Below, one piece after another: positions 6,761 to 43,181 of a DNA stretch of 64,000 nt. Each line of letters opens with the position of its first letter. Position 1 is the first letter of the stretch. The notes below the pieces were generated by a model. That model saw nothing but the letters and a program-made list of their open reading frames with translations, ran no database searches and had not been told where the DNA came from. The stretch lies in NCBI RefSeq assembly GCF_058153355.1, contig NZ_CM177019.1. One strand, given 5' to 3'. The position numbers were made by a program, and so were the translations under genes.

Positions 6761-8446
6761 ATGTACGATTTTAATCTGGTGTTGCTGCTGCTTCAGCAGA
6801 TGTGCGTTTTTTTAGTCATTGCGTGGTTAATGAGTAAAACGCCATTATTCATACCGTTAATGCAGGTCACGGTTCGTCTGCCGCATAAATTTCTCTGCTA
6901 CATCGTCTTTTCCATCTTCTGCATCATGGGCACTTGGTTTGGGCTGCACATTGACGATTCTATTGCCAATACCCGTGCGATTGGTGCGGTAATGGGCGGC
7001 TTACTCGGCGGTCCGGTCGTCGGTGGGCTGGTTGGTCTGACCGGCGGGTTACATCGATATTCGATGGGGGGCATGACCGCGCTAAGTTGCATGATCTCGA
7101 CCATCGTTGAAGGATTGCTCGGCGGCCTGGTACACAGCATCCTGATCCGTCGCGGGCGCACTGATAAAGTCTTTAACCCCATTACCGCCGGTGCCGTCAC
7201 GTTCGTCGCTGAAATGGTGCAAATGTTGATCATCCTGGCGATCGCCCGACCTTATGAAGATGCGGTGCGTCTGGTGAGTAATATTGCTGCGCCAATGATG
7301 GTCACCAATACCGTCGGCGCGGCGCTGTTTATGCGTATATTGCTCGATAAACGCGCGATGTTTGAAAAATACACTTCGGCTTTTTCTGCTACTGCGCTGA
7401 AAGTGGCTGCCTCGACGGAAGGCATTTTGCGCCAGGGGTTTAACGAAGTGAACAGCATGAAAGTGGCACAGGTGCTGTATCAGGAGCTGGATATTGGTGC
7501 AGTCGCGATTACCGATCGAGAGAAATTGCTGGCCTTTACCGGAATTGGTGACGACCACCATTTACCTGGTAAACCGATTTCTTCGACTTACACCTTAAAA
7601 GCGATTGAAACCGGTGAAGTGGTCTACGCCGATGGCAACGAAGTGCCTTACCGTTGCTCGTTGCATCCGCAATGCAAACTGGGTTCGACGCTGGTGATTC
7701 CGTTGCGTGGTGAAAATCAGCGGGTGATGGGCACCATCAAATTGTATGAAGCCAAAAACCGTTTGTTCAGTTCAATCAATCGCACGCTGGGCGAGGGGAT
7801 TGCGCAACTGCTTTCGGCGCAGATCCTCGCCGGGCAATATGAGCGGCAAAAAGCGATGCTCACCCAGTCAGAGATCAAACTGCTTCACGCTCAGGTGAAC
7901 CCCCATTTTTTGTTTAATGCGCTTAACACCATTAAAGCGGTGATCCGCCGCGACAGCGAACAGGCCAGCCAGCTGGTGCAGTATCTTTCCACTTTTTTCC
8001 GCAAAAACTTAAAGCGGCCTTCGGAGTTTGTTACTCTCGCCGACGAAATTGAACATGTGAACGCTTATCTGCAAATTGAAAAGGCGCGCTTCCAGTCGCG
8101 GTTGCAGGTCAGCATTGCTATTCCGCAAGAATTATCCCAGCAGCAATTGCCCGCGTTTACCCTGCAACCGATTGTGGAAAACGCCATTAAACATGGGACA
8201 TCACAACTGCTGGATACAGGGCGAGTAGCAATCAGCGCCCGACGTGAGGGGCAACATTTGATGCTGGAGATCGAAGACAATGCTGGCTTGTATCAACCGG
8301 TAACCAATGCCAGCGGGCTGGGGATGAATCTGGTGGATAAGCGTTTACGTGAACGGTTTGGCGATGACTATGGGATAAGCGTCGCCTGTGAACCTGATAA
8401 TTACACCCGAATAACGTTACGACTGCCATGGAGGGACGAGGCATGA
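6761..8446 (+). CDS. btsS: LytS-type sensor histidine kinase BtsS (YehU)
   Basis: 561 aa from ATG 6761 (ORF track starts 15 bp upstream at GTG); multi-TM N-terminus and histidine kinase C-terminus. Confidence 0.9.
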
Positions 8447-25225: not shown

Positions 25226-28200
25226 TTAATTAAACAGTGATTCAATGTCGTTAATCAGCTCGCTGGCGGTGATGTCGTCGAGTACGGAGAAAGTGGGTGA
25301 GGATTGCTTACCATAGCGATCATAAGGGGCGATGATTTTTACGCTTTCGACAGGCAGCAGGTCGCTATACCCCGTTTCGCCATAAATTAATGAAAAAGGT
25401 TCTGTTTCAAGTTCGAGAGCGCCATAAGGGGTAGATTTGCGCATCGCATAGACGCTGCCGCTTTCTTCCAGACGTTGCCAGCCTCTGCGTTCCAGCCCGA
25501 CAATGCGTCCGGCCTGGCAGAGACGTCCGTTCCAGCGTGACAATTCATGGACATTACGTTCGTTATCAGCAAGGTGGTAACTACCACGTTCGAGCTGTTG
25601 GAAGGGGGGAAGCAGTTCGTAATCAGCGTAAATTTGCCTGAATGCAGCGACAGATTCAGGGGGGATTTCCAGCATATGCGGAATACCGATGTTTCCTGCT
25701 GGTAGCGTGAATAGCTCATCCTGCATATCGCTGTAAGTGCTGTCTTCTGCGACCCGGAAGCAGGCAATCAGCGTGTTTTCCTCAGTATATACTCCCCATA
25801 ACAGCCGTCGGGTTAAGTGACGTACCAGCGGATGCTCCACCAGAAACAGGCGGAACTGTTCTGCCGTCCAGCGTCTGCGCTGGCACATAGCCTGCTCCAG
25901 ACGATCAATCTGCTGACTGGCAATGGCGCGCACATCTTTCTTCAATTGTTTGAAGAGGTTAACGGCGTCAGTTGCCAGTGTTTTATCATCGCTCTGATTT
26001 GGTTTGGGTAAATCTTTCAGGACTTTGCCGTTTGCATCGCGCACTACAGGTTTTAAGGTTTCGTCAAAACCAACGGTGAATTGACGTGGGCCGAAATCCA
26101 GTATCAGCGAGCCACTGCTATCAAGCCCTAAATCTGGAGCCAGGCGGTCTTCCAGTTCAGCCATTGTCAGTCCGCGATTTTCGGCGACCATATTGATTTT
26201 GTCGCGGGCGTGTTCCTGCAATGCTTTGAATTTAATTTTTTGTGCAATGCCATTAAGCAGCATCAGCGCAATATCGCTACCGATACTGGCTAACACATCC
26301 AGCCCAGAAACCGCACGTTTATGCTGGGATTCACCCGGCCAGACCCGGATAAGCGGGGTTAGTTTACGCGCGGTGTCGTCATTGCCTAAAATCCCCAGCG
26401 AGGTAAATGCCCAGTTTTCTTTTGCGGGCGCGCCAGATTCCATCCATGCCGTGTAGAGATCCCAGCCAAAGTCAGCCAGTGATTCCCGGGTGAAGGTCTC
26501 TTTGATGATCGCCAGCCCAGCGTAGGAGGTAATGTCGCGTGGAAAGCTCAATATTGTGCCCAGGTGGCGCATAGCGTCATCGGGCAGAGGCAGGTTGTTA
26601 CTTTTAAGCCGTGGTCTGCGCCATAAGGTGAACTGATAAAAGCCGGGCAGTGGGGCGATTTTTGCAGGATATTCTTCCAGTGGATCGCTATCGAACAATG
26701 TTGCCAGCGCAGCTAAAACATCAGGTTGATTATATCCCCGGGCGATTTCCTCAATCGTTTCTCGCTGGTTTAAATTCACCAGCAGGCGAAGCGCCTGGCG
26801 GGCACAATCACGATCTTTTCCTTTTTTGCCCAGGGCCACAGGAAGTAGCCCGGCGGCGGCATGGTGTGGGAAGTTAGCCAGCCATTTTCGGGCATCTTCA
26901 TAAGACATTTTTTTCTGTAATCGCTGCGCCATCGGTAATGCTAATTCGCTGACGCCCAGGAAAAGGGTGAATATCCACAACTGTTGTGGCTTACGTTGCA
27001 GACATTTCATAAACGCAGGAATGGCCGCATCACCAAAAATCGCCAGAATTTCTCTCTCGCCGGAGAATTGCTCTTCATTAATTATTTGATTGAGAAAAGA
27101 AATAGCATGCTGAGTGGGTAGGAAGCAGAGCGCGTACAACTGCCAGTGTCTGCTTCCTTTATTATGGTATTGCGCAAACTCTGCTTTCAGCGCGGGGAAA
27201 TCGAAACGTAACAGGGCCTCAACTGCGCTTTGTGGCATTATTTTTTTTTCGTATTGTTCTTCTCCGGTTCTGCTCCATTCCTTAAACCCCAGTCGCCAAA
27301 GGATTTGCTGTTCTGGCGTTAAAGGGATGAAAGACGTTTCCCAGCTTTCCTTTTCAATTAGTGGCAGATCGGTAAATAAGGTTTGCTGTGATGCCTGATA
27401 TTTCGCGATTTCACTGAATCTGGATATGTCAGTGTGACTGATTAACTCTGTAATTCCAGGTGTGATGTCAGTGACGGAAGGGATGGGAAGTACCGGTAAA
27501 TCAAATACGGGTATTACATTCTTTTTCTTATTTATTGCCCACGGTGGAGCGACAAGCAGTTCTGGCAACATATTCGCAGTGGCATACTCACATTCTTTAG
27601 CTACTGACTGAGGACGACATTCAGATAAGATGCCTGCCGCTTTAGCATTAACCCAGGGAATGACGTCGCGTACTAACTCTGGCGTGACGGTAACCAGTTT
27701 GACAAGCGCGTTGCGCCACTGTGCATCTTCATGTATTGCCAGCAAAGTAGCATAAGCGGCAATAGCCGCAGCGGGATGTTTTTGGCAGGCTTTGCTTAAG
27801 TATTCCAGGTGCTTTTTCTTGCCATTTACACCGAGGATCAGAATTTGAATCGCATCCGGGTGATTCGTTTTCCATAGCCATTTGACAAGATCTTCAGTCT
27901 CGCTGATGCGCTCGAAGAGATAAGTGGGATTGTCAGAATGCTCTTCCGTAAACTCAGTAAGTATCCGGCTTACACCGCGCCCCCCATTATTTGCCAGCAA
28001 CATTGCCAGATAAGCGCGAAAATCACGATACAACGGTGGGAAGTCGTATTTTTCTGCTGTAGTCAGAGCTATATCATCGGTTACTACCACTCTTAACCAG
28101 GTTATCGCCGGAACGTTTTGGTCTGCATAGCGTAGAGCCATAGCATTGGCAATATCCGGGCGTTCAGGGAGCAGTAACGCGGCAAAAGGTTGCCGTGCTG

Positions 28201-29023
28201 GGGATAGCGTCGGAATAGCAGTAAGCACTTTATCCACACAGCGTTGCCACTCATCTTCTGAAGCGAGTGAAAGATGATGACATAGACGTTGATGCCAACT
28301 CGGTAGCGATTCTGCTTCGTGATTAGGTGGAATGATGGTGGTTACTGCGCCTTTTACTGGTTTATATTTGAGTTGAAGAGCGAGAAGGGCGATTTCAACG
28401 GCACTTTCCAGACCACAGCGAATGACTAAGTCATCGACCAGTTCATCTTGAGAGTAAGAGTTCCAAAAGCCCCAGAGCAATGCCGCATCAGATTGCGCAC
28501 TCCCTGTCTGTTTATTACCCAGAATTCGCATTTGTACCTCAGCAAAAGCCTGCTGCCAGTTTTCTGGATAAGAACGGTAATTGTTGTCGGGGTCATATGC
28601 CCTGGTGTTATTCGCGATGCGCTTCCATATTTGACCATCTTTGTGCAGATAATTGATATCTCTGGGGCGAGAGCGATGTGGAAAAGCAAATCGGTTAATA
28701 TCGTCGGTTAGCGGAATGACTGCATCATCAGCCAGCCATGGGCGTTTGTTTTTACTCTCGGGTGAAGTTTTAACGTCAGGAGTGACTTTGGTGACGGGGG
28801 ATATATGCACGTTTGCCGAAGCGTCTTCCACATAGCCTTTTTTCGTTTTCTCTGCGATAAGCTTCAGTTCCGCTTTTTCCGCTGCTGCAGCATCAGCAAA
28901 ATTTTTTACCTGGCTTTGCCCTTGGGTACCAACTTTTCCCCAACTGATATGCAAATCGTTACCTTGCTGCTCCACCGCCCAGAATTTATGCGATTTTTCG
29001 TCCTGAAAGATAAAGTGTCTCAT
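25226..29023 (-). CDS. molR: WGR domain + DUF4132 protein, MolR-family paralog (metG-proximal copy)
   Basis: 1265 aa; near-identical N-terminal WGR module; 12-bp gap to the middle paralog; sits where K-12 has molR. Confidence 0.75.
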   Translation of the reverse strand: MRHFIFQDEKSHKFWAVEQQGNDLHISWGKVGTQGQSQVKNFADAAAAEKAELKLIAEKTKKGYVEDASANVHISPVTKVTPDVKTSPESKNKRPWLADDAVIPLTDDINRFAFPHRSRPRDINYLHKDGQIWKRIANNTRAYDPDNNYRSYPENWQQAFAEVQMRILGNKQTGSAQSDAALLWGFWNSYSQDELVDDLVIRCGLESAVEIALLALQLKYKPVKGAVTTIIPPNHEAESLPSWHQRLCHHLSLASEDEWQRCVDKVLTAIPTLSPARQPFAALLLPERPDIANAMALRYADQNVPAITWLRVVVTDDIALTTAEKYDFPPLYRDFRAYLAMLLANNGGRGVSRILTEFTEEHSDNPTYLFERISETEDLVKWLWKTNHPDAIQILILGVNGKKKHLEYLSKACQKHPAAAIAAYATLLAIHEDAQWRNALVKLVTVTPELVRDVIPWVNAKAAGILSECRPQSVAKECEYATANMLPELLVAPPWAINKKKNVIPVFDLPVLPIPSVTDITPGITELISHTDISRFSEIAKYQASQQTLFTDLPLIEKESWETSFIPLTPEQQILWRLGFKEWSRTGEEQYEKKIMPQSAVEALLRFDFPALKAEFAQYHNKGSRHWQLYALCFLPTQHAISFLNQIINEEQFSGEREILAIFGDAAIPAFMKCLQRKPQQLWIFTLFLGVSELALPMAQRLQKKMSYEDARKWLANFPHHAAAGLLPVALGKKGKDRDCARQALRLLVNLNQRETIEEIARGYNQPDVLAALATLFDSDPLEEYPAKIAPLPGFYQFTLWRRPRLKSNNLPLPDDAMRHLGTILSFPRDITSYAGLAIIKETFTRESLADFGWDLYTAWMESGAPAKENWAFTSLGILGNDDTARKLTPLIRVWPGESQHKRAVSGLDVLASIGSDIALMLLNGIAQKIKFKALQEHARDKINMVAENRGLTMAELEDRLAPDLGLDSSGSLILDFGPRQFTVGFDETLKPVVRDANGKVLKDLPKPNQSDDKTLATDAVNLFKQLKKDVRAIASQQIDRLEQAMCQRRRWTAEQFRLFLVEHPLVRHLTRRLLWGVYTEENTLIACFRVAEDSTYSDMQDELFTLPAGNIGIPHMLEIPPESVAAFRQIYADYELLPPFQQLERGSYHLADNERNVHELSRWNGRLCQAGRIVGLERRGWQRLEESGSVYAMRKSTPYGALELETEPFSLIYGETGYSDLLPVESVKIIAPYDRYGKQSSPTFSVLDDITASELINDIESLFN

Positions 29024-38176: not shown

Positions 38177-38204
38177 TCCCCCTCATGATGAGGGGGCTTT
38201 TTTT
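38177..38204. terminator. Bidirectional terminator between yehA and rcnB
   Basis: Hairpin ccccctca-tga-tgaggggg with T-run on the plus side and A-run on the other. Confidence 0.65.
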
Positions 38205-38541
38205 AGCGATGATAAAAAATCTCACCATCGTAGGCTTTAATGATTTTACCGTCGGTGTCGCTGATCAACACGTACGCGCCACCCATATAGGTCCAGTGCG
38301 TCCCGGCATCAGGCGCGGGCAGGTTACGTAACTGCCACTGCTTAATGTTGTACTCATCGGTGCGGTACATCTCTGGGACGGTATCGCCTGGTTTGAAATG
38401 CTTAAAGTCAGCAATGAAACTGCTTAACTCATACTTAGAAATTCCCGAGGTATTGGTCGAACCCGCGGTGGCTGGTGCGGCCCAGGCGGCACTGGTAACC
38501 AGCAAAAGCACACCCAGCAACATCTTATTTTTAATGGTCAT
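38203..38541 (-). CDS. rcnB: Periplasmic Ni/Co homeostasis protein RcnB (YohN)
   Basis: 112 aa from MTIKNKMLLGVLLLVTSAAWA; ORF track extends a further 60 codons upstream. Confidence 0.85.
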   Translation of the reverse strand: MTIKNKMLLGVLLLVTSAAWAAPATAGSTNTSGISKYELSSFIADFKHFKPGDTVPEMYRTDEYNIKQWQLRNLPAPDAGTHWTYMGGAYVLISDTDGKIIKAYDGEIFYHR

Positions 38542-38759: not shown

Positions 38760-39581
38760 TTATCGCATTATGCCCATAAAGCCATGTACGCCCATATACA
38801 CACCAACTAAGCCAATCAACAGACTGGAAAAATAGGGGGCGCGTTTAGCGAGAGTGTTAAATCCGCTCCAGCGTTTTGCGACCTGCTGAACGCTGATTGC
38901 TGCGCCAATGCCTACGGTGACCAGCGTTAACGCAAGGCCAATGCTGAAACTGACGACCAGTGTTGCGCCCAGTGTCAGGGCTTTCAACTGAATGCAAATC
39001 AACAGCACGGTAATTGCTGCCGGGCAGGGGATAAGGCCACCGGTTAAGCCAAATAACAAAATTTGCCAGTTGGTGACCTCTCTACCATCGAAGCGTCGTT
39101 TAATGTCATTGGCATGGGCTCGTGCATGAGCATCCTGATACTCCCCATGTTCGTGATGGTGATGATGTCCATGGTCGTGGTGATCTTCGTGATCGTGATG
39201 ATACTCATGATCATGCCCGTGCATATTCTCCAGCCAGTTGCGTTCGCCGCGCCAGGTACGCCAGAACATCCAGAACGCGGTGCCAATAATGATCACCGCG
39301 GAAATCAACTGGAGCCACGGTTCTGCAGATTGAGCAGTAAAACGTTTGCTGATCACCATCCCGCCAAAGGCAATCAACCAGACCACCGCGGTATGCGAAA
39401 TGGTTGCTGCCAGTCCGAGCATCACCGCCTGTTTAATGGTGCCTTTGATGGCGATGATAAACGCCGCCATCATCGTTTTTGAGTGCCCTGGTTCCAGGCC
39501 ATGAAGCGCACCAAGTAAGATGGCGCTGGGGATGAAGAACCAGGCATTTCCTTGCTGAAGAAGAGTGGTAAATTCGGTCAT
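38760..39581 (-). CDS. rcnA: Nickel/cobalt efflux protein RcnA (YohM)
   Basis: 273 aa membrane protein with His-rich loop HGHDHEYHHDHEDHHDHGHHHHHEHGE. Confidence 0.9.
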   Translation of the reverse strand: MTEFTTLLQQGNAWFFIPSAILLGALHGLEPGHSKTMMAAFIIAIKGTIKQAVMLGLAATISHTAVVWLIAFGGMVISKRFTAQSAEPWLQLISAVIIIGTAFWMFWRTWRGERNWLENMHGHDHEYHHDHEDHHDHGHHHHHEHGEYQDAHARAHANDIKRRFDGREVTNWQILLFGLTGGLIPCPAAITVLLICIQLKALTLGATLVVSFSIGLALTLVTVGIGAAISVQQVAKRWSGFNTLAKRAPYFSSLLIGLVGVYMGVHGFMGIMR

Positions 39582-39618
39582 GATAATAATTCTTAGTATT
39601 AATTCGGCAATCCGATTC

Positions 39619-39652
39619 TACTCCCCCCCAGTACCTGATACTACCCCCAGTA
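39619..39652. promoter_or_regulatory. Two RcnR operator sites in the rcnA-rcnR divergent region
   Basis: TACT-C7-AGTA at ~39619..39633 and TACT-ACCCCC-AGTA at ~39639..39652. Confidence 0.7.
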
Positions 39653-39700
39653 GAATAATAGTGCTATGATTTTTCATGTTCTTGTTAACCAGGTGTTGCC

Positions 39701-39973
39701 ATGTCTCATACAATCCGTGATAAACAGAAACTGAAAGCGCGTGCCAGTAAGATTCAGGGCCAGGTCGTGGCGCTCAAGAAAATGCTCGACGAGCCGCACG
39801 AATGCGCAGCTGTTCTACAACAGATTGCTGCTATCCGTGGCGCGGTAAACGGCCTGATGCGCGAAGTGATTAAGGGGCATCTGACGGAACACATCGTTCA
39901 CCAGGGGGATGAGCTAAAACGTGAAGAAGATCTGGATGTCGTTCTGAAGGTGCTGGATTCTTATATCAAATGA
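39701..39973 (+). CDS. rcnR: Ni/Co-responsive repressor RcnR (YohL)
   Basis: 90 aa, [22 protein letters not shown]... Confidence 0.9.
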
Positions 39974-40082
39974 AAGTGCCTAATATGGCCGTAGTTGAGG
40001 CAATAAATAGAGGGACAAGTGACGTTAAGCTGAATTAGAGTAAATGGCGTGAGGACACACGCCATTCGAGGATATAGTTTGA

Positions 40083-40397
40083 TTAATTTTCGAAAAATTG
40101 CTTCACAGCCCAGCCACCATGACCACCTGGAGTTATGAATGAAACAAAACCTTTGTCATCGACGCTCTGGATTTCTACTGTCATTGATTCATCTAACACG
40201 CGACATTTATTGGATGTAATGAGACTCAGCATAGCCTGTTGGTCATTGTCCTGGATGTAACTGATCATCTCGTAAAAGTCAGTTAACTTTTTACAGTTAA
40301 ATGTACCTTCTTTAAGTGTTGCGCTGTCTCCGTGACTTAGTGCGAATGCATTTGGCATCATTGCCACAAAGATGACGGTAACGAGTAGTTTTTTCAT
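40083..40397 (-). CDS. Hypothetical small secreted protein (104 aa, two Cys in mature part)
   Basis: Signal peptide MKKLLVTVIFVAMMPNAFA; low-GC island; no family recognised. Confidence 0.55.
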   Translation of the reverse strand: MKKLLVTVIFVAMMPNAFALSHGDSATLKEGTFNCKKLTDFYEMISYIQDNDQQAMLSLITSNKCRVLDESMTVEIQSVDDKGFVSFITPGGHGGWAVKQFFEN

Positions 40398-40406
40398 TGT
40401 AGCCTC

Positions 40407-40754
40407 TTATAATTCAGAACATTCACTGATGTTGTAAGTGCCTTTTCTACCATCATCGTTTACGAGATGTAGCACGAAGATGATGGGATTGGCATCAATG
40501 AAAGATACAGAGACGTTCCCGCTTTCGGTGCTATACATCTTTGCAATCTGTTTTTCACCAATATATGAAAGATCCCAACTCACTCCGTTCAAGCTAAAAT
40601 GCATCTGTTTGCCGTCAATATCGATGGAGGATTGTGCCGTAACGGTTTTCCCATTGCTGCCAATTTGACCCTGCTGAAGAGCATCACATTTATAGGAGCT
40701 TGCATAAGTAAATAGAGGTAGTAGCAGAAGTGCAGCAAAAATTTTACTCTTCAT
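40407..40754 (-). CDS. Hypothetical small secreted protein (115 aa, Cys near both ends of mature part)
   Basis: Signal peptide MKSKIFAALLLLPLFTYA; 9 bp upstream of the 104-aa ORF on the same strand. Confidence 0.55.
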   Translation of the reverse strand: MKSKIFAALLLLPLFTYASSYKCDALQQGQIGSNGKTVTAQSSIDIDGKQMHFSLNGVSWDLSYIGEKQIAKMYSTESGNVSVSFIDANPIIFVLHLVNDDGRKGTYNISECSEL

Positions 40755-41807
40755 ATTTTCCCTTTGCTTGGATTTGAGTTACCTATTTTGGGGTAGTCAT
40801 TATAAAACTATTAATTAGTAAAATGAACAAGTTTTCATTTGTTTAGTAATGGTATTGTTTAGGTTTGAAATTATTACGTACTTTCATAGCAATAGGTTGG
40901 ATAAACAGCAGTTCAGAGAACAAGTTGCACTATCTACATACTTTCCCGCTTTCCATTGTATGTTAGGTAATAGATAGCCTTTGCCCGTAAGACTAAAAAT
41001 ATTAGAAATGACTCATTCGAATACCTTCTATTCACCTTAATATAGGTTTGATTATTGTAATCGTTTAATGTGTCTTATGGATTTTTTCCTACTTTTCATT
41101 TGCATAATATAGGGGGCACAGCATGCTCTTGAAATTAATTATTAAGATATTTAAATTTTACAGCACACAACTACTTTTCGTTGTCTTATGTGTTGAACGT
41201 ACTTCGAGTATAGGTAGGGTTGTATATATATTGCGTGGGTAGAGTTAGAATAGAGGAGGCATCATTTATAGAATATTCAAGAACGTTAACCTGTGATCAA
41301 TAAATAAAAATATCAAATGGTGTTCAAACATATTTTTCTATGAAAAATCCAGCCATCTATGATGAATTTTTAGATCCATTTTAATTAAAGTATGATTATG
41401 AACCAATATTTAGCCAAGAATGGTGGTATAGCGCGTATCCAATGACACCGGAAAACGCATCTATGAAGTCCTTGTTTATCTCTATAAGAGGAAATCAACA
41501 CTAATAAAATATAGTGATGTAACACATCGAGCAGGTTGCTCTGATGCTGGTCTTCAACTGTGGCTTAAACAGCTATCAAACTTCGGTGTTATTGAGATGA
41601 AAGAATTATCTTTCTCAACTTTCAATCTCAAAAAGCTAGAGGAAATAGACCTTAATTATTCCACTCTCTAAACTTATCTCTTTATTTAAAGTAAAAATGA
41701 AAATATTATGGTATCAGCTACGTGGTGGTAACTGGTGTTTATGATCATAGGTACACATATACAGGGAACCCTGGAAAACAAAAGTAATATATTGATGATT
41801 TCGTTTG

Positions 41808-42047
41808 TTATAACTTCGTGGTATCAAGTCCGGCGGCTTTGAGTCGCTCGGTAAGATTTCTCATTTTGCTGAACTCTGTACCAAAGCTGGCTTTAAGTCC
41901 TACACCTTCGCAAAACTCTTTTGCCGTGACGTTTTTAAGATGGTCAGCGTATTTGATCATCTGGAGGTGCATTTCCATCGTTTGGCTATTTCGTGGTGCG
42001 CTGCTAATGGCTTGCTTAATGTTCTCGTAGATCTGGGTTTCTGTCAT
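41808..42047 (-). CDS. Hypothetical 79-aa protein, possible helix-turn-helix
   Basis: AGGTGAG Shine-Dalgarno ~8 nt upstream; HTH call is by eye only. Confidence 0.4.
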   Translation of the reverse strand: MTETQIYENIKQAISSAPRNSQTMEMHLQMIKYADHLKNVTAKEFCEGVGLKASFGTEFSKMRNLTERLKAAGLDTTKL

Positions 42048-42271
42048 TTTTTATCTCACCTATCAAATTTAGATAAATAATATAAATTAGATAAATAAGA
42101 TAATCAATAGTTTTTACCATATGAATAATGGATGTGGATTGTTTCTTTTTCATTTCTGATATGGAGTACAAAATGGGGTCACAATGAAGAAGCGATGAAT
42201 GGAGGCGAGCTTGCATCTGCAAGCCTCTTCCCCTAATCTGGCACAAAATATAGAGATTCAACCAAACGACT

Positions 42272-42392
42272 CGGGGTGCCCTTCTGCGTGAAGGCTGAGA
42301 AATACCCGTATCACCTGATCTGGATAATGCCAGCGTAGGGAAGTCACGGACCACCAGGTCATTGCTTCTTCACGTTATGGCAGGAGCAAACT
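42272..42392 (+). ncRNA. TPP (thiamine pyrophosphate) riboswitch in the thiM leader
   Basis: THI-box core ...ggggtgcccttctgcgtgaaggctgagaaatacccgtatcacctgatctggataatgccagcgtagggaa... directly upstream of thiM ATG. Confidence 0.9.
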
Positions 42393-43181
42393 ATGCAAGT
42401 CGACCTGCTGAGTTCCGCGCAATCTGCGCACGCGTTACACCTTTTTCACCAACATTCCCCTCTTGTGCATTGCATGACCAATGATGTGGTGCAAACCTTT
42501 ACTGCCAATACCTTGCTGGCGCTCGGTGCATCGCCAGCGATGGTTATCGAAACCGAAGAAGCCAGTCAGTTTGCGGCTATCGCCAGTGCCTTGCTAATTA
42601 ACGTCGGCACGCAGACGCAGCCACGCGCACAGGCGATGCGTGCTGCCGTTGAACAGGCAACACACTCTCAAACCCCCTGGACGCTTGATCCGGTCGCGGT
42701 TGGCGCACTCGATTATCGTCGCCGTTTTTGTCATGAACTTTTATCTTTTAAACCGGCAGCGATACGTGGTAATGCTTCGGAAATCATGGCATTAGCTGGC
42801 GTTGCTAATGGTGGACGGGGAGTGGACACCACTGACGCCGCAGCTAATGCGATACCCGCTGCACAAACACTGGCACGGGAAACTGGCGCAATCGTCGTGG
42901 TCACAGGCGAGGTGGATTATGTTACCGATGGTCGTCGCACCGTTGGCATTCACGGCGGCAATCCGTTAATGACCAAAGTGGTAGGAACTGGCTGTGCATT
43001 ATCGGCAGTTGTCACTGCCTGTTGCGCATTACCAGGCGATATGCTGGAAAATATCGCATCTGCCTGTCACTGGATGAAACAAGCCGGAGAACGCGCCGTC
43101 GCCAGAAGTGAAGGGCCTGGCAGTTTTGTTCCCCATTTTCTTGATGCGCTCTGGCAATTGACGAAGGAGGTGCAGGCATGA
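42393..43181 (+). CDS. thiM: Hydroxyethylthiazole kinase
   Basis: 262 aa ORF following the TPP riboswitch. Confidence 0.9.

Follow-up and report, generated by a model that had tools for sequence, protein, structure and literature searches.

The nickel- and cobalt-responsive repressor RcnR is described as recognizing TACT-G6-N-AGTA motifs in the intergenic region between the divergent genes rcnA and rcnR (PMC7055735, PMC3902906 and PMC7105576, as these papers cite Iwig and Chivers, 2009). One RcnR tetramer occupies each site, contacts being made at the TACT/AGTA repeats and the G-tract having an A-form-like shape (PMC3902906); the contacts at TACT/AGTA lie in the minor groove (PMC7055735, PMC3902906, PMC7105576). 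When metal is absent, RcnR tetramers fill both sites and repress rcnAB and rcnR (PMC7055735, PMC3902906, PMC7105576, PMC5016687), and the title of Blaha et al. (2011), as cited in PMC7055735, refers to a shared operator. The 35-bp operator rcnO, TACTGGGGGGTAGTATCAGGTACTGGGGGGGAGTA, put a foreign promoter under RcnR and cobalt control, standing downstream of that promoter in the construct (PMC7105576 supplement). In Salmonella, RcnR saturates a two-site DNA of approximately 35 bp at 8 monomers, equivalent to two tetramers, with a KDNA of 1.5e-7 M for the apo form that rises to 5.9e-6 M or more in the presence of Ni and to 1.5e-5 M or more in that of Co (PMC5016687). As printed, the S. Typhimurium oligonucleotide has C7 at each of its two sites, and C7 after TACTA amounts to an 8-bp interval at the rcnR-proximal position (PMC5016687 supplement); it is printed as 36 nt, as compared with 35 bp in the text (PMC5016687). 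Other members of the DUF156 family, namely FrmR with its operator in the frmRA promoter and the CsoR systems with type 2 operators, differ in half-site sequences and tract layout as well as in their effectors (formaldehyde and Cu(I), respectively), and a type 2 site takes up two tetramers (PMC3902906). No RcnR structure, free or bound to DNA, is present in the PDB, where FrmR 5lcy and 5lbm are the nearest entries; the lack of an RcnR structure is also stated in PMC11672702.

The 64-kb window analysed here, by which we mean the whole stretch of DNA, contains yehABCD, rcnB, rcnA, rcnR and thiMD in the arrangement known from E. coli. The rcnR gene (39701-39973, plus strand) encodes a Ni(II)/Co(II)-responsive repressor of 90 aa, which scores 197 bits against the NCBIfam RcnR equivalog NF011613 (cut-off 138), matches Pfam PF02583 and is 100% identical to RcnR of K-12; the metal ligands His3, Cys35, His60 and His64 and the RASK motif (residues 14-17) are all visible in its translation. 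The divergent rcnA gene (38760-39581, minus strand) encodes a Ni/Co efflux pump of 273 aa (NCBIfam NF007454, 554 bits; Pfam NicO), followed downstream by rcnB (38203-38541, minus strand; Pfam PF11776 RcnB), the gene of a periplasmic accessory protein, which is so annotated in K-12 and other genomes and whose product differs from that of K-12 by one substitution. Relative to the 274-aa protein of K-12, one residue is deleted from RcnA and five are substituted; the His-rich loop accounts for the deletion and for three of the five replacements. This cytoplasmic loop (39180-39215, codons ~124-134) reads HDHE-YHHDHEDHH, versus HDYEHHHHDHEHHH in K-12, and RcnA protein accessions vary between the E. 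coli genomes inspected. Over 24 kb no complete RefSeq E. coli genome exceeds 97.9% identity to the window, and from yehA to rcnR the window shares 99.7% identity with strain 2013C-4282.

The intergenic region between rcnA and rcnR, delimited by ORF coordinates and alignment, spans 119 bp (39582-39700; 120 bp in K-12) and holds both divergent promoters. Two motifs lie within it, in the context ...GATTC TACTCCCCCCCAGTA CCTGA TACTACCCCCAGTA GAATAA.... The rcnA-proximal site, TACTCCCCCCCAGTA (39619-39633, minus strand), is the same as in K-12 and in the right half of rcnO, and the rcnR-proximal site, TACTACCCCCAGTA (39639-39652, minus strand), is a variant allele, as seen in the alignment of K-12, 2013C-4282 and 504838. 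Both strings stand verbatim at the positions where an initial sequence-only reading had placed them; the 6 bp that it put between them turned out to be a 5-bp spacer, CCTGA (39634-39638), the start-to-start offset of the two sites being 20 bp and the centre-to-centre distance 19.5 bp. TACT/AGTA inverted-repeat half-sites bound both motifs. Read on the rcnA sense strand, the rcnA-proximal site is TACT-GGGGGG-G-AGTA, a canonical TACT-G6-N-AGTA with 7 bp between the half-sites, and the rcnR-proximal site is TACT-GGGGG-T-AGTA, with an interval of 6 bp where the literal motif needs 7. The attribution of both sites to the TACT-G6-N-AGTA type holds literally for the first but not for the second, whose G5 (five C's on the strand shown) had gone unremarked; as the positional orthologue of the published site, the second is classed as a variant allele of it. 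In the 64-kb window the pattern TACT-N(0-2)-CCCCC-AGTA has two matches, both at the operator, against 0.01 expected (100 dinucleotide shuffles, none of which gave two). The stricter 15-mer frame TACT-N7-AGTA has one match versus 0.17 expected, and the only run of seven or more C's in the window is the C7 of the operator. A G-quadruplex or i-motif was rejected, only two G-runs being present, and no RNA element was detected between rcnA and rcnR at the Rfam gathering threshold, the only match being the thiM TPP riboswitch further right.

Comparison with the published footprint, made through papers citing Iwig and Chivers (2009) and through supplementary oligonucleotide tables, showed that the published sites, as represented in these sources, coincide with the window motifs and do not lie elsewhere in the intergenic region. 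The rcnO sequence is the reverse complement of window positions 39619-39652 plus one C (34 of 35 positions identical), and the intergenic region of K-12 MG1655 contains precisely these two motifs, in column-for-column alignment with those of the window. Because the motifs align base for base with K-12 and with rcnO bar one C, they are assigned to the known tandem RcnR operator, and their proposed role in the repression of rcnA and rcnR is backed alike by the K-12 alignment, the identity with rcnO and the literature. Taken as a whole, the best explanation, which we regard as very probable, is that these motifs form the tandem RcnR operator in the divergent promoter region of rcnA and rcnR on an E. 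coli chromosome. With the K-12 operator the window shares the flanking genes, the intergenic position and orientation, the rcnA-proximal site, the CCTGA spacer, the half-sites and the RcnR protein; it differs in carrying G5-T in place of G6-T in the rcnR-proximal site, which gives a total length of 34 rather than 35 bp and a distance between centres of 19.5 rather than 20 bp. Three further substitutions distinguish the intergenic DNA flanking the operator from that of K-12. A in the window corresponds to T in K-12 at position 39655 (AGTAGAAT versus AGTAGATT), and C corresponds to T at 39613.

The Ni/Co efflux locus rcnRAB has all its genes intact and a textbook operator at the expected place, as anticipated by the sequence-only reading, which had considered the sites a sanity check of locus integrity and not a novelty. 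That judgement is sound with regard to the genes and to the operator as a feature, which is known biology at a known position. It is not strictly true that the locus is fully canonical, since the rcnR-proximal site is one base shorter than in the published operator, and only this short site and its polymorphism in the population are added here to what has been described. The literature searched yielded no mention of either a tract-length polymorphism of this operator or a one-base-short site.

Candidate core promoter elements were located by conservation. For rcnA, the putative -10 hexamer reads TAGAAT in the sense of the gene (ATTCTA; 39615-39620, minus strand) and shares the outer TA with the rcnA-proximal site; 46 of 70 species have ATTCTA here, and 11 others have the near-match AATCTA. 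The candidate extended -10 element of the rcnR promoter, TGCTATGAT (39662-39670, plus strand), starts 9 bp past the rcnR-proximal site; TGnTAnnnT occurs downstream of this site in 51 of 70 species, mostly starting exactly 9 bp past it. A generic sigma-70 scan missed both of these elements. It returned TTGCCG/TATTAT on the rcnA strand, with a -10 ending 2 bp before the rcnA ATG, and TTAACC/TACAAT on the plus strand, which runs into the rcnR start codon, and both of these matches were discarded. As judged from conservation, the operator pair would extend over the rcnA promoter's -10 element and spacer, and in both promoters over the -35 region. Given the overlap with the rcnA -10 and the distance of only 9 bp to the extended -10 of rcnR, the bound pair would be expected to occlude both core promoters.

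According to published work, apo-RcnR binds as one tetramer per site, hence two on the 35-bp element, keeping rcnAB-mediated efflux and rcnR switched off, and the loading of Ni(II) or Co(II) onto RcnR lowers its DNA affinity by ~40-100-fold and opens both promoters. The deleted base would lie upstream of the -35 position of rcnA and in the -35 region of the rcnR promoter, which seems to have no recognisable -35 element, so that any effect should be exerted via RcnR binding rather than via promoter geometry. The deletion falls outside both candidate -10 elements and leaves their position relative to the genes unchanged. We infer from the conservation of the 7-bp spacing that the 6-bp interval may weaken RcnR binding at the rcnR-proximal site to some degree; overall Ni/Co-responsive control should nevertheless persist, given the canonical sequence of the other site and the identity of RcnR with that of K-12. 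Against the loss of 1 bp being of consequence stand the Salmonella oligonucleotide that bound two tetramers, printed as it is with an 8-bp interval, and the presence of length variants in ~6-7% of E. coli sequences, apparently fixed in successful lineages, which suggests that a change of one base in either direction is tolerated.

The constraint on the operator was evaluated in rcnR loci collected from 80 representatives of other Enterobacterales species. TACTCCCCCCCAGTA is found upstream of rcnR in nearly all of them, and the tandem pair was detected in 70, with a 5-bp spacer in 69 of these 70 and 7 bp between the half-sites at both sites in 66; among the exceptions, the 6-bp and the 8-bp variants each occur once per site. 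Interruptions of the rcnR-proximal tract (ACCACCC, ATCCCCC and ACCTCCC, in the sites TACTACCACCCAGTA, TACTATCCCCCAGTA and TACTACCTCCCAGTA) leave the 7-bp interval unchanged, which argues that the spacing is under selection. From these alignments, half-site spacing seems to be more constrained than tract continuity. No pair was detected in the remaining 10 loci, eight of which have a single C-tract site, the other two being cut short or having a different sequence upstream of rcnR. Single TACT-C7/8-AGTA sites ~60-100 bp upstream of rcnR were observed in Morganella, Edwardsiella anguillarum, Erwinia psidii and Enterobacter sp. CC120223-11, with what looks like a degenerate sequence (AAACTACCCTTTTGT) at the second-site position in Morganella.

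A parallel to the short site is found in Salmonella. The S. enterica operator rcnRAPro has the same tandem TACT-C-tract-AGTA layout and a 5-bp spacer, and its two-tetramer binding is weakened by Ni and Co (PMC5016687); it differs from the window in its spacer sequence, TAGAA versus CCTGA, and in the C7 printed for both sites. The type strain of S. enterica subsp. arizonae, CCUG 6322T, carries a short site, TACTACCCCCAGTA (positions 1438-1451 of the collected locus), identical to that of the window, and S. enterica subsp. diarizonae has the canonical C6 site.

The two C-tracts (39623-39629 and 39644-39648 in the window) are polymorphic in length, also at seven further loci examined. Variants were counted in complete E. 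coli genomes with K-12-type flanks by means of queries of 91-93 bases carrying K-12 flanks, in which one difference lowers identity below 99%, so that the top band of matches has the same tract lengths as the query. Denoting alleles by the number of C's in the rcnA-proximal and rcnR-proximal tracts, the canonical C7/C6 was found in 4203 records, C6/C6 in 114, C8/C6 in 93, C7/C7 in 27, and C7/C5, the type of the window, in 26 (15 full-length matches). Non-canonical alleles therefore make up 5.8% of genomes with K-12-type flanks, the allele of the window accounting for 0.6%. In another haplotype, at least 10 genomes have C9 as the rcnA-proximal tract, so that the tracts range in E. coli from C6 to C9 at the rcnA-proximal site and from C5 to C7 at the rcnR-proximal site. 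When a 91-base query carried the flanks of the window, the matches were limited to 32 complete E. coli genomes, owing to SNPs in the flanks and a 28-base seed; none of these 32 genomes of the same local haplotype has the G5 allele, and 13 of them have the window sequence plus one C. In metagenome contigs, mostly from short-read assemblies, a length-tolerant pattern recovered 67 operators, comprising 62 canonical, two C6/C6, two C8/C6 and one C7/C7; the non-canonical share (5/67, 7.5%) matches that of the genome collection, and the exact G5 allele was found in none of the 67.

Some of these variants recur in records that resemble one another. Among the C8 records are three of differing origin with the label O121, and among the C6 records several of O111 type with the operator at similar chromosomal positions; some tract-length variants look to be fixed in the O111 and O121:H19 lineages, as far as record labels and positions indicate. 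The six G5 genomes inspected have distinct local haplotypes, 16-67 substitutions apart over 2.9 kb, and the window differs over 2.9 kb by 73-92 substitutions from the other G5 genomes and by 7 from 2013C-4282, which is canonical. The occurrence of G5 on unrelated haplotypes indicates that the allele has arisen recurrently, by mutation or by error. In sum, length polymorphism of the operator tracts in E. coli is real.

The reading in which the palindromes are not RcnR sites, being either chance inverted repeats or sites of another regulator, such as the paralogue FrmR, is extremely improbable and effectively refuted. FrmR is the closest paralogue, the neighbouring gene scoring 76.5 bits against the FrmR model, and FrmR likewise reads a C-tract flanked by T/A-rich inverted repeats (PMC5016687). 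However, this score lies below the FrmR cut-off of 133 and compares with the 197 bits of the RcnR equivalog, so the gene beside the operator is RcnR and neither FrmR nor CsoR. Chance is countered by the 0.01 motif matches expected in the window, and any regulator other than RcnR by the near-identity (34/35) to the operator that confers RcnR- and cobalt-dependent control (PMC7105576 supplement) as well as by the conservation of the operator beside rcnR, in tandem in 70 of 80 species representatives. With the tandem RcnR operator accepted, a homopolymer error of sequencing or assembly may account for its missing C, in which case the true locus would be a canonical TACT-G6-T-AGTA with nothing unusual about it. 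This explanation is quite possible, though on balance not the one we favour. It is in keeping with the rarity of the G5 allele (26 records versus 4203 canonical ones) and its absence from the 32 genomes of the same haplotype and from the 67 metagenome contigs, with the canonical operator of the closest local relative, 2013C-4282, and with the scatter of the six inspected G5 genomes over unrelated haplotypes, as errors would be scattered. As a control, a G6 tract inside the btsS coding sequence (window equivalent 7066-7071) shows the -1 form in 2 of 1084 K-12-haplotype genomes, one of them an MG1655 re-assembly, and the -1 rate at the operator is higher than that of the control, though not significantly (odds ratio 3.3, p = 0.10). 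The re-assembly, K-12 MG1655 record NZ_CP025268.1, has btsS G5 instead of G6, which is due to either faulty assembly or a frameshift that arose in the laboratory. On the other side, the indel in the operator is the sole homopolymer-length change among 14 indels that separate the window from its closest relative over 24 kb, which argues that the record is not error-prone in general. Tract variants are similarly frequent in the metagenome assemblies, mostly short-read (5/67), tract-length variants are common to several independently sequenced genomes labelled O111 or O121, and the same G5 allele stands in the assembly of the S. enterica subsp. arizonae type strain. The balance of this evidence leans slightly towards the particular base missing from the window being a genuine deletion.

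Homopolymeric tracts in promoters are familiar from the contingency loci of Neisseria, Haemophilus, Helicobacter and Campylobacter, in which the tracts are typically longer than 5-7 bp. By analogy, the G-tracts of the RcnR operator could act as a slippage-prone tuning element, in which heritable spacing changes of one or two bases set a lineage-specific basal level of Ni/Co efflux, the G5 of the window being one such step; as a general account we consider this distinctly unlikely. Common to the contingency loci and the RcnR operator is a G/C homopolymer in a promoter or operator whose length differs between strains, including closely related genomes. The RcnR tracts differ in being only 5-9 bp long, in that their variation is known from comparison between genomes alone, and in that this variation alters the half-site spacing of a repressor and not the -35/-10 spacing. 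Favourable to tuning are the series of alleles counted above, from C7/C6 through C6/C6, C8/C6, C7/C5 and C7/C7 to the C9 found elsewhere, and the shares of non-canonical forms in genomes (5.8%) and metagenome contigs (7.5%), together with the variants in three O121-labelled records of different sources and in several O111-type records. Moreover, the longer tract is variant about four times more often, as slippage predicts, and the remainder of the 35 bp is nearly invariant. Yet, for classical phase variation, tract lengths of 5-7 are on the short side, the same pattern would be expected if slippage were neutral at a site that tolerates it, and no such report was found in the literature searched. 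A related proposition takes the loss of the G:C pair as genuine and as belonging to a series of natural alleles, with tract lengths of 5-7 next to rcnR and 6-9 next to rcnA, which would shift the set-point at which Ni/Co efflux is repressed between lineages. It is tentative and rather unlikely, and it rests on RcnR reading both half-site spacing and G-tract shape, through which slippage alleles would act.

Should tuning by tract length hold, it would amount to a simple-repeat 'rheostat' inside the operator of a metal sensor, which was not found described in the literature searched. More generally, if the length changes alter RcnR binding, they would offer a cheap natural means of studying how half-site spacing is measured by a repressor of unsolved structure, and of studying differences in Ni/Co tolerance between strains; if they leave binding unaltered, the repressor tolerates one base more or less.

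Elsewhere in the window, further differences from K-12 were noted. Approximately 2.2 kb of low-GC DNA (0.31-0.41; 39974-42261) separates rcnR from a TPP riboswitch (RF00059, 71 bits; 42262-42358, plus strand) located upstream of thiM (42393-43181). K-12 and 2013C-4282 lack this stretch, with 91 bp between rcnR and the riboswitch; E500002 has it, as apparently do O55:H7 genomes. Three small minus-strand ORFs were recognized in it, at 40083-40397 ('outer membrane protein' in RefSeq, no Pfam match), 40407-40754 (signal-peptide-like N-terminus, no Pfam match) and 41808-42047 (Pfam HTH_73), and positions 40755-41807 comprise ~1 kb of AT-rich DNA without an ORF over 50 aa. A further mechanically called ORF (42016-42354, minus strand) overlaps the riboswitch and is probably spurious. 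At 25226-29023 (minus strand), adjoining metG, the window has an uninterrupted ORF of 1265 aa, where K-12 has yehF and the yehH pseudogene; E500002 carries a frameshifted 'WGR domain-containing protein' at the same position, and the gene of the window appears intact.
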